This document shows, piece after piece, positions 6,002 through 7,751 of a stretch of DNA of 64,000 bases; positions within the stretch are counted from its first letter, which is position 1, and the number at the start of each line of letters is the position of its first letter. Position numbers and translations under genes: made by a program. Below the pieces are notes generated by a model. It was not told where the DNA came from and searched no databases. It saw only the letters and a program-made list of their open reading frames with translations. This DNA comes from Escherichia phage slur14, in sequence record NC_028448.1; one strand, 5' to 3'.

Positions 6002-6334
6002 TTATTTTACTACTTTCCAATGCTGCATGTCAAGTTTACCAACTTTTTTCATCTTCTCAATTAAGCGTTCGGCACGTTGGCGAGCTGTAACATAATACCA
6101 TTCACCTAATTCATTTTGTTCAATTTTTCCAACGATTACTGTATTCAATTCATAAATCCAACCAGTAAAGAAATTATGAACTTGAATTGTAAAGGTGAAA
6201 TCTGTTCCCATACCTTCTGTTGTTTCTACTTCAATAATATCACCTTCAACTGCCATTAAGAACCACATAGTTTCATCATATTTACCATTGAAGCATTTAG
6301 TTTTAACTGCAGCGTTCAGATTAATCGTTTTCAT
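6002..6334 (-). CDS. hypothetical protein (30.8 position)
   Basis: 110-aa ORF. Confidence 0.6.
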   Translation of the reverse strand: MKTINLNAAVKTKCFNGKYDETMWFLMAVEGDIIEVETTEGMGTDFTFTIQVHNFFTGWIYELNTVIVGKIEQNELGEWYYVTARQRAERLIEKMKKVGKLDMQHWKVVK

Positions 6335-6410
6335 TTTATTCTCCTTTGTTTGTGTAAGATAATACTATCACAAAGGAACCATACTGTAAACAACTTTATG
6401 CAATCTTTGG

Positions 6411-6440
6411 AAAATAAAAAAGGACTCCCGAAGGAGTCCT
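6411..6440 (-). terminator. intrinsic terminator after the 30.9-position gene
   Basis: Minus-strand AGGACTCCTTCGGGAGTCCT followed by TTTTTTATTTT. Confidence 0.65.
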
Positions 6441-6444
6441 CAAC

Positions 6445-6621
6445 TTATGCTTTCTGCTTACCAAAACGAGAAGCATCATCTCGAAGAACCGCACGTGCTC
6501 GGCGCATGATCTTCTCAACAGTTTGATTGATACGAGAGTTCGACCCACGCTTGTAGCCAGCGCGTTTAGAATCACCAACTTTCTTTTCAACTGCTTTCTT
6601 TGCTTTAGCTTGTTTTGCCAT
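6445..6621 (-). CDS. small highly basic protein (30.9 position)
   Basis: Start moved to ATG at 6619-6621 (MAKQAKAKK...); 58 aa, Lys/Arg-rich; terminator hairpin downstream at 6421-6440. Confidence 0.55.
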   Translation of the reverse strand: MAKQAKAKKAVEKKVGDSKRAGYKRGSNSRINQTVEKIMRRARAVLRDDASRFGKQKA

Positions 6622-7019
6622 TATAAATTCTCTTTTAAATGAAAATGCAGGACTTATTGGCATTGCCTGCGCAAGCCCTCAAGGGGAACATAGGTTTTTG
6701 GATATTTAACGACCAGGATAACCATAAACCCGTCATCATACCTTATAGCTCTTATCTGTTGCACACCGTTAGCTTAAAGGTTCCGGGTTCGATTTCTCGA
6801 GGATAAGATATATACTGATGGATATATAGGCCTTGAGGCGTACTCCCGATTGGCCATCACCTCGGGGTAGCATGCACTTGCCGCTATAAGAATAACATTC
6901 AAGAGGTACACCGTAAAACTGCCGGGGTCTTAAAACTATAATGATTCGCAAATCATTAATCAGACAGTTCGACGGCTCCTCGATTTTAGCTCACACTAAG
7001 GCAGTGAATCTCCAGTAAA

Positions 7020-7268
7020 TTACTTCAGTGTTACCACAAAGTGACGAACTGCTTTTCGTGCAGCAGAAGCCAAAGGCTTAGCATATTTAAGTTCATCTTT
7101 TTCCTGAAGCTCAGCAGCTAATGCAGTTTGAGCAGGATTCAGATGTTTGAAATAACGCAGGATTTCAAGAGCTTCGGCTTCAACATCAATAGATGCGCCA
7201 TAGTTTTCGTGACCATTATTCCATGCGTTTCGTTGCAGTTCAAGAGCGTGTTGTAATTGTTTAATCAT
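7020..7268 (-). CDS. rIII: lysis-inhibition accessory protein rIII
   Basis: 82 aa, MIKQLQHALELQRNAWNNGHENYG... as remembered for T4 rIII. Confidence 0.9.
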   Translation of the reverse strand: MIKQLQHALELQRNAWNNGHENYGASIDVEAEALEILRYFKHLNPAQTALAAELQEKDELKYAKPLASAARKAVRHFVVTLK

Positions 7269-7415
7269 TTAAAAATTCTCGTTAGAGATTAAAACTCGGT
7301 AGTCACGTTCTTCTGAATTTCATCTTCTTTCGACAGATCTCTCAGTTGTAGACTACCACATAGAATTGTTCGGTTAACTTATTATTCCGACACCCAATTC
7401 ATATTATTATTTATA

Positions 7416-7751
7416 TCACTTATAAAGACACGGAATAGCTTTATAGTGACAGGTAACAAATTTTTGTTTAATTTCTTTTGGCTGCTTAAGACCCAGAGCT
7501 ACAAAAGGATGCGGAACATTTCGAATTTGACCAACTGGGAGAGAAGTCAAATCACCAACTTCGCAGAAACCTTCAGGAACATCAGGACCGACAGAGTGAA
7601 TTACACACAGTTCAGGAACTTCACCTTGAACACGTTTACCGATAATAAGTCCTGATTCTGTAACTTCTTCATCACCGGCTTGTGCAGGTTCAGAAACTAA
7701 AATAACATATTCACCGACAGCACGAATTGGTAGCTGTTGTACTTCAGACAT
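7416..7751 (-). CDS. 31: head-assembly co-chaperonin gp31 (GroES-like)
   Basis: 111 aa, [19 protein letters not shown]...; position after rIII as in T4. Confidence 0.95.

Follow-up and report, generated by a model that had tools for sequence, protein, structure and literature searches.

The rIII–30.9 interval of phage slur14

The DNA analysed here is a 64,000-nucleotide stretch of Escherichia phage slur14 (NC_028448.1; hereafter the window), a T4-like phage of the genus Tequatrovirus. At the locus of interest the genes lie on the minus strand. Gene 31 and rIII, which encodes a lysis-inhibition accessory protein, are followed by gene 30.9, which encodes a very basic 58-aa protein with no known function, and by gene 30.8 (Table 1). 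A T4-type late promoter consensus, TATAAATA, is located upstream of rIII, and the record for phage Lutter annotates a promoter at the equivalent position. The 901-bp stretch around the interval is 100% identical to the sequences of phages slur03, VEc20, and Lutter.

Between rIII and 30.9 there are 356 to 398 nt without a gene, the exact length depending on whether gene 30.9 begins at position 6621 (MAKQ) or at 6663, the upstream ATG used in the T4 annotation. Such a gap is unusual for so tightly packed a genome. The first-pass annotation had described positions 6664–7019 as a G+C-rich, non-coding island, and this description is borne out by a G+C content of 44.4%, compared to 35.3% for the whole window. 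The value is 42–44% for 6622–7019 and 47.6% for the core at 6746–6888. The four G+C-rich strings singled out at that stage begin at 6783, 6829, 6861, and 6921, where three fall inside the conserved RNA core described below and one (GCCGGGGTC) lies outside it. The perfect 8-bp hairpin that was emphasized, TAATGATT-CGCA-AATCATTA, is present exactly at 6939–6958. This hairpin is peripheral to the RNA, being the tip of a longer, separate predicted stem-loop that also includes GCCGGGGTC and is optional among relatives: T4 has the stem-loop, and phages VIPECOOM02 and LF82-1 lack it.

Several observations concern the annotation of this region. The T4-type start of gene 30.9 yields a 72-aa protein beginning MPISPAF, and the 30.9 proteins of other genera are annotated as 56–59 aa. 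MAKQAK is the 30.9 N-terminus in the loci of three relatives that were read across the start codon, and the 14 extra codons of the long form (6622–6663) overlap a conserved hairpin, GCAGGCAAUGCCAAUAAGUCCUGC. The true start of gene 30.9 is probably at 6621. Several GenBank records lay two to four 'hypothetical protein' ORFs over the non-coding gap (window 6400–7300). In some records the feature under the match, apparently 30.9, is named '1,4-alpha-glucan branching enzyme, GH-13-type', a label that evidently arose through faulty annotation. A sub-threshold Rfam match to the Rhizobiales sRNA Atu_C8 at 6406–6489 on the minus strand (31 bits, compared to a gathering score of 50) was rejected, as it is merely the strong intrinsic terminator after gene 30.9. 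Directly after the rIII stop codon, CUGGAGAUUCAC (7005–7012, minus strand) consists of GGAG followed by A/U-rich sequence, and is loosely similar to the RegB cleavage consensus GG*AGRAYARAA (PMC3014915).

Table 1. Features of the gene 31 to gene 30.8 region in window coordinates, listed in the direction of transcription. Where two ranges are given, the first is the 5' strand of the pairing. 'Compensatory' gives the number of base pairs with compensatory changes among homologues.
Feature	Position	Strand	Basis or remarks
Gene 31	7416–7751	minus	annotation of relatives/profile match
Late promoter consensus TATAAATA	7408–7415	minus	read from sequence
rIII	7020–7268	minus	phrog_1457, E 5e-44, and annotations
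Upstream long stem-loop, tip at 6939–6958	~6909–6976	minus	single-sequence fold
Core structured RNA, P1 to P1, ~145 nt	6744–6888	minus	covariation and covariance model
P1, closing helix, UAUAGC/GCUAUA	6883–6888/6744–6749	minus	6/6 compensatory
P2 arm	6829–6882	minus	covariation of P2a and basal helix
P2 basal helix, GGC/GCC	6880–6882/6829–6831	minus	
P2 conserved internal loop, AAGUGCAU/CUCAAG	6872–6879/6832–6837	minus	
P2a helix, bulged A6844 and C6840	6862–6871/6838–6849	minus	8/10 compensatory
P2b, short helix	6860–6861/6852–6853	minus	
Loop L2, UGAUGG	6854–6859	minus	6-bp kissing helix with L3
P3 hairpin, A-U-rich, UAUAUAU-CCAUCA-G-UAUAUA	6809–6828	minus	4/7 stem pairs compensatory; 97.6% of cells paired
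Loop L3, CCAUCA	6816–6821	minus	kissing partner of L2
P4 arm	6750–6808	minus	covariation
P4 helix, UCUUAUC/GAUAAGA	6802–6808/6750–6756	minus	5/7 compensatory
P4a hairpin, GAAA loop at 6793–6796	6789–6800	minus	4/4 compensatory
P4b helix, ACCCG/CGG-U-GU	6784–6788/6763–6768	minus	2/5 compensatory
15-nt loop closed by P4b, GAACCUUUAAGCUAA	6769–6783	minus	
Invariant joiner GCAACA, completing the P4 arm	6757–6762	minus	
Module ii: UAUGAUG, hairpin with conserved ~12-nt loop UUUAUGGUUAUC, then CGUUAAAUAUCCAAAAACC	6694–6740	minus	
Module iii: small hairpin of form GUACCCnnnnGGGGCUUG, here UUCCCCUUGAGGGCUUG	6672–6688	minus	
Gene 30.9	6445–6621	minus	phrog_1427, E 2e-31
Intrinsic terminator 3' of gene 30.9, GAGGACUCCUUCGGGAGUCCUUUUUU	6420–6441	minus	terminator scan
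Gene 30.8	6002–6334	minus	annotation of relatives/profile match

Architecture and covariation of the core RNA

The island contains a conserved RNA fold whose helices were established by aligning distinct homologues, assigning pairings by hand and with RNAalifold, building a covariance model (R1), and realigning the sequences to this model. R1 matches window positions 6740–6891 with 178.4 bits (E ~3e-41), a score far above chance expectation, and this is its only match in the 64 kb. Homologues occur at two genomic sites, either after rIII (A-type, as in slur14) or in the uvsY–uvsW gap (B-type).

Structurally, the P1 helix, which can extend to 6741–6890 in slur14, opens straight into a perfect, linker-free four-way junction. 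Its sequence varies widely with pairing maintained (for example AUAAAC/GUUUAA, AUUAC/GUAGU, CAUAC/GUAUG, and AUUAG/CUAAU). The P2 arm carries an internal loop with the consensus AAGKGCAU/CUCAAG, whose bases are nearly invariant. The P4 arm forms a small three-way junction that holds most of the invariant bases of the RNA (ACCCGGAMCC and GCUAACGGUGUGCAACAG), the latter being an 18-mer that is invariant in A-type copies. In this arm, the P4a loop is usually GAAA among homologues, and the loop closed by P4b has the consensus GAMCC-n5-GCUAA. Most invariant bases are found at junctions, including the three-way junction of P4, and in internal loops. A kissing interaction between loops L2 and L3 clamps two of the arms together.

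The fold is supported by strong evidence of covariation. Among 36 distinct homologues, most of which fall into ~8 clades so that independent lineages are effectively few, 96.3% of cells are standard pairs, compared to 26–44% when the 3' partners are slid by one to three columns. Compensatory change on both sides is seen for 31 of the 44 nested pairs, and none of 500 shuffles reaches the observed values. Because this alignment was fitted to the covariance model, RNAalifold was also applied to 12 diverse members aligned with plain MAFFT. This structure-blind alignment recovered P1, P4, P4a, and P4b, and newly proposed the L2–L3 kissing helix, in which each of the six pairs shows compensatory change and pairing is complete (100% of cells) across the 12 sequences. 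The variants of this helix include CGAUGG/CCAUCG, CUAUGG/CCAUAG, CAAUGA/UCAUUG, UGUAUU/AAUACA, and UGCAUU/AAUGCA.

A divergent locus (L122) adds covariation at otherwise invariant positions, in the base of P2 and in P4b. There, the basal C-G pair of P2 becomes U-A (and U·G in another locus, L048), and a G-C pair of P4b becomes A-U. A C-G pair of P4b is replaced by U-A in B-type copies. An all-against-all scan of alignment columns for additional tertiary pairs was swamped by the split between A-type and B-type clades, and only a change from U16-A64 to G·U in the P2 internal loop was suggestive. Folding of single sequences gave z-scores short of significance (minus strand −1.55, plus strand −1.07, whole gap −1.09); support for the fold is comparative rather than thermodynamic.

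The direction of the mismatches establishes both the strand and the nature of the molecule. The alignment contains 78 G·U cells, distributed over 18 of the 44 pairs, compared to no A·C cells in any pair, and therefore the structure works only on the minus strand. The same asymmetry indicates a single-stranded RNA rather than a DNA cruciform or a duplex protein-binding site, and accordingly disfavours one of the three readings offered in the first-pass annotation, that of a protein-binding or origin-like DNA region. The anomaly noticed at that stage is nevertheless real, and another of its readings, a structured RNA, is the correct one, with the qualification that only the central ~145 nt are involved and that the highlighted perfect hairpin is not part of the structure. 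We conclude that the core is very probably a functional structured RNA produced from the minus strand.

A coding function is hardly credible by comparison. The proposal that a small protein is encoded over the core could draw on the 'hypothetical protein' ORFs in some GenBank records, such as kpv477_220, and on frames of 55–60 aa at this position in the window, including the 60-aa minus-strand frame (6769–6951) that had already been judged unconvincing from the sequence. However, in each of 34 homologues every frame is interrupted within the element, and the ORFs annotated over the core in several records are therefore spurious. Furthermore, indels are not multiples of three, and substitutions are concentrated in compensating pairs. 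Relatives have no conserved protein-coding gene at this position.

Distribution, flanking modules and a second location

BLAST searches of 50,697 phage records identified the gap in ~990 T4-like genomes, with at least 80% of it covered in only 178. With the core block as the query, 409 phage records are recovered. A-type carriers include a subset of Tequatrovirus as well as Dhakavirus, Moonvirus, Jiaodavirus, and Karamvirus, together with Edwardsiella phage PEi26 and phages of Serratia, Kosakonia, and Erwinia. Phage EcS1 matches the core at 70%. The core block, and little else of the gap, is 94–95% identical in Jiaodavirus phages of Klebsiella and ~85% identical in Moonvirus. In all seven loci inspected the core lies between rIII and 30.9, and it is directly downstream of rIII in 17 of 42 IMG/VR loci that contain this gene.

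An alignment to the T4 30.9–rIII interval, which had been proposed as a check on the island, reveals that T4 lacks the central block. T4 aligns to the gap in two pieces, with ~150 bp (window ~6745–6896) missing, and T2 is likewise cleanly devoid of the core block. The distribution is patchy among close relatives. Cassettes that might substitute for the core at the rIII site were considered and rejected, since relatives without the core just have shorter gaps. Where present, the core is 83–94% identical between genera, compared to 68–75% nucleotide identity for rIII and gene 31. Judged from these comparisons, the RNA is dispensable for this type of phage as a whole and appears more constrained than its neighbours. 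Recent horizontal spread, rather than strong constraint, is another possible source of this combination of strong conservation and patchiness.

Each genome carries a single copy, as BLAST with the core gives no second place in any phage record. All true matches in the IMG/VR and metagenome set are T4-like contigs. Looser two-block pattern scans of IMG/VR returned mostly chance matches in G+C-rich coding DNA, along with one new true lineage.

The gap that houses A-type copies is modular. Its 30.9-side part is constant in Tequatrovirus and comprises module ii, module iii, and the translation start region of 30.9. In module ii, a hairpin sits between UAUGAUG and CGUUAAAUA..CCAAAAACC; its consensus has the loop UUnUAGGUYAUC and the flanks UAUGAUG and CGUAAAAYA..CCGAAACC, and its stem covaries as judged by eye. 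This module follows the core in Tequatrovirus, Karamvirus, and EcS1, and precedes it in Jiaodavirus and Serratia phage 4S. The 64-kb window has a single module iii, with a degenerate copy, GUACCUCUUGAAUG, at ~6897–6910 upstream of the core. Exact matches to module iii are found at 15 loci, 11 of which adjoin the RNA and represent both genomic sites; the other four are unrelated contigs. Genera differ in how core, module ii, and module iii are ordered (compare loci L003, L005, L006, and L008), and T4 keeps modules ii and iii without the core. In the window, the P2 internal-loop strand CCUCAAGG is complementary to the loop of hairpin iii, CCUUGAGG, but the two show no covariation in other genera, and a pairing of this kind was rejected.

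A second location was revealed by Yersinia phage JC221, in which a divergent copy of the RNA resides after uvsY.-2 and faces the convergently transcribed uvsW.1/uvsW genes. Such B-type copies score 117–125 bits with R1 and are present in ~20 records from Slopekvirus (mtp5) and Pseudotevenvirus (GAP161, iPHaGe-KPN-12i), as well as in one IMG/VR lineage. Because the gap is convergent, they have no gene downstream on their own strand. B-type copies are also patchy: RB16/RB43-like contigs whose UvsW.1 is 95–97% identical lack the RNA.

The presence of the element at two genomic sites, its patchiness among close relatives, and its clean presence/absence polymorphism bounded by an inverted repeat are features that might be expected of a DNA-level element, such as a replication origin, a site of recombination or homing, or what is left of a small mobile element flanked by terminal inverted repeats. 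We regard an explanation of this kind as very improbable. The excess of G·U over A·C cells noted above is a signature of single-stranded RNA, and the supposed terminal repeat covaries like a helix, as do the internal helices and the kissing loop, whose pairs a scar would not preserve. Marks of a transposon or MITE were sought without success: the element is single copy, no target-site duplication is evident at the junction between T4 and the window, and no transposase or endonuclease gene is present at the locus, where the only neighbours are rIII and 30.9. Two findings speak against the scar of a degraded mobile element, the remaining reading of the first-pass annotation: conservation of the sequence exceeds that of the neighbouring genes, and its terminal repeat behaves as a covarying RNA helix.

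Relation to known RNAs and candidate functions

Searches of Rfam 15 uncovered no family to which the RNA belongs. A scan of 1.1 kb at E<=10 yielded nothing that overlaps the core, the 166-nt core alone gave zero matches, and at the gathering score there was nothing in five divergent homologue loci and nothing for the core in the whole window. Sub-threshold matches nearby correspond only to the terminator hairpin that follows 30.9 and to comparable noise. A full-text literature search yielded no description of this RNA. The core represents an RNA family of T4-like phages that is well supported and, as it appears, undescribed. Few viruses have been studied as thoroughly as T4 and its relatives; the RNA was probably overlooked because the T4, T2, and RB69-type references lack the core and because annotators place spurious ORFs over it. 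Hundreds of isolates carry the RNA, including many phages of Klebsiella, Escherichia, Salmonella, and Enterobacter that have been proposed for therapeutic use.

Several specific identities were considered and rejected. A tRNA-like reading of CCGGGTTCGATTT on the plus strand fails because ARAGORN reports no tRNA or tmRNA genes in the whole window and because the stretch is antisense to two covarying helices, with the plus-strand GGTTCGA being the antisense of P4a and P4b. A host-derived RNA mimic is contradicted by the absence of bacterial similarity beyond chance matches. Specifically, blastn (word size 11, E<=10) found nothing in 5,426 E. coli genomes and only chance matches of 26–30 nt in 72,556 plasmids, and the invariant 18-mer GCUAACGGUGUGCAACAG has three matches in 185,579 bacterial and archaeal genomes, none of which is accompanied by the other motifs. 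The core also contains short words that we take to resemble parts of E. coli RNase P RNA (GUGCAACAG, GAACCCGG), tmRNA PK1 (CAAGGUGCAUGC), the 16S 530 region, 4.5S RNA, and the SAM-I box (CUUAUC...ACCCGGCAACC...GAUAAGAG). We treat all of these as coincidences given the negative outcome of the Rfam search at E<=10 and of the E. coli blastn search, and for the SAM-I box the shared words pair differently.

Within the T-even group, the closest points of comparison are the T4 species 1 and 2 RNAs (rnaC and rnaD), which are also phage-encoded, structured, ~120–140 nt in length, and located on the gene strand of the genome. However, rnaC and rnaD belong to the tRNA cluster and have a tRNA-like T-arm at their end, whereas the core RNA is found elsewhere and has no tRNA-like end; T4 possesses the former without the latter. 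Homology was rejected after R1, run with filters off on the T4 tRNA region, returned only noise of at most 5.7 bits and no match on either RNA. A 2010 review of post-transcriptional control in T4 lists the role of rnaC and rnaD as unknown and notes that no riboswitch or trans-acting RNA had been characterized in this phage (PMC3014915).

How the RNA is transcribed bears on what it could do. Consensus scans found no sigma-70 or early promoter in the island, and candidates noted by eye are wrongly spaced. Given the late promoter TATAAATA in front of rIII, A-type copies should be transcribed by read-through, and we infer that the RNA is made as part of the rIII transcript. B-type copies probably use a late-type promoter of their own, as the box CATAAATA or GTAAATA lies 8–11 nt before a GGGCAAGG motif. 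With a box so placed, late transcription of the T4 type would begin with the first bases of P1, at its 5' end. These candidate boxes differ from TATAAATA at the first one or two positions, and boxes of this kind might arise by chance in AT-rich DNA.

The architecture of the core invites comparison with riboswitch aptamers. Lysine riboswitches have an L2–L3 kissing loop, cobalamin riboswitches combine a four-way junction with a kissing loop, and the Mn2+ and NiCo riboswitches are four-way junctions with docked conserved loops. Like these aptamers, the core has a closing P1 helix, a multi-way junction, arms clamped by a kissing interaction, and invariant bases in junctions and internal loops. 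It differs in having no Rfam 15 match at E<=10, no expression platform, and B-type copies that precede no gene. The possibility thus arises that the RNA is a cis-acting leader, either a riboswitch-like aptamer or a protein operator, that controls 30.9 or the stability of the rIII mRNA. Multi-helix junctions with invariant unpaired bases and loop-loop contacts would be typical of aptamers, A-type copies in the loci inspected are always between rIII and 30.9 on the coding strand, and 30.9 itself is unusually conserved (87% with KpV477). A-type copies have no recognizable promoter of their own and so could act only within the rIII–30.9 mRNA.

Despite these attributes, regulation in cis seems improbable to us. 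A leader role for 30.9 is made unlikely by the B-type copies that lack a downstream gene on their own strand, by the absence of a conserved platform, and by the varying spacing and module order. The distances from the RNA to rIII and to 30.9 vary between genera, and depending on the genus modules ii and iii either separate the RNA from 30.9 or precede the RNA. No U-tailed terminator follows P1, the sequences 3' of this helix differ between genera, and no conserved terminator/antiterminator or RBS-sequestering partner linked to P1 was found. Finally, T4 and many of its relatives express 30.9 without the core RNA.

Another candidate function is that of a new self-cleaving ribozyme or RNA-processing module that would cut the polycistronic transcript. 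By analogy with small ribozymes, the size, compact fold, invariant junction bases, and phage location of the core might fit such a role. Hairpin and twister-sister ribozymes have a four-way junction and two arms with conserved internal loops, a layout that the core shares, and T4-like phages encode enzymes for RNA end healing and sealing. Unlike these ribozymes, the core has no match to a known ribozyme family at E<=10, and it has no recognizable, conserved candidate for a cleavage site. We consider this proposal to have only a slim chance of being correct.

On balance, we think it reasonably probable that the core is a compact, autonomous non-coding RNA gene of ~145 nt that binds a partner, serves an accessory function, and is not a leader of 30.9. 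Every step beyond a conserved folded RNA on the minus strand is an interpretation, and on its own the description as an autonomous, partner-binding accessory RNA seems to us evenly poised. The concentration of invariant bases in junctions, together with the kissing clamp, would be the anatomy expected of a specific binding pocket or surface. The folded RNA may use these invariant junction and loop bases to bind a specific partner, which could be a protein, a small molecule, or another RNA, and the kissing loop provides a defined three-dimensional constraint on this candidate functional RNA. A patchy yet highly conserved distribution would be typical of accessory functions such as counter-defence, host takeover, or host range. 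Thus, the RNA might be a dispensable factor for host takeover or counter-defence that is exchanged among T4-like phages. Such proposals are directly testable: a single genus includes both natural carriers and non-carriers, and the modules have been delimited with single-base precision.

In the way it came to light, the RNA resembles GOLLD, ROOL, raiA, OLE, and similar orphan RNAs of phages and bacteria, often phage-borne and without a known role, which were likewise discovered solely from conservation and covariation. The core RNA is much smaller, is restricted to Straboviridae of Enterobacterales, and is not represented in Rfam 15. Its movement is reminiscent of the PeSL units, mobile regulatory cassettes that Arbiol et al. 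reportedly described in 2010, in which a promoter and stem-loop flank variable ORFs of T4-type phages. Both cases involve short non-coding stem-loop modules that are shuffled between intergenic sites; here, the RNA is accompanied by the GUACCCnnnnGGGGCUUG hairpin, and the modules change their order. The cases differ in that the cargo is a 145-nt covarying RNA fold and no early promoter was found. More speculatively, and in our estimation unlikely, the core could be the first trans-acting functional RNA of the T-even group and a new compact class, with a pocket that sequesters a host or immune component or is catalytic, traded along with the GUACCCnnnnGGGGCUUG hairpin as a counter-defence or host-takeover cassette.

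Other non-coding elements are also present in the uvsY–uvsW region. In two RB16/RB43-like Pseudotevenvirus contigs (L138:1650–1790 on the minus strand, and L141), the slot used by B-type copies, after uvsY.-2 and a small ORF and before a GUACCCCUUGUGGGGCUUG hairpin, holds a different non-coding stretch of ~150 nt with the form GGGUAGGUAAAAAGUUGCCAUAGGCAAG...GGUUUGAGUUCGAAACGCAAGG...CUGGU. This stretch has no match in Rfam and may be an alternative RNA cassette. A further conserved non-coding block, GGCGUAnnCUUUUGCGCCGUCCGAUnGAGUUUACUUUCGGCGGGGUGAUUG, lies in the convergent gap downstream of the small hairpin (L007:~895–960, L090:~905–965, and L138 minus strand ~1625–1555), and is common to phages with and without the B-type RNA.
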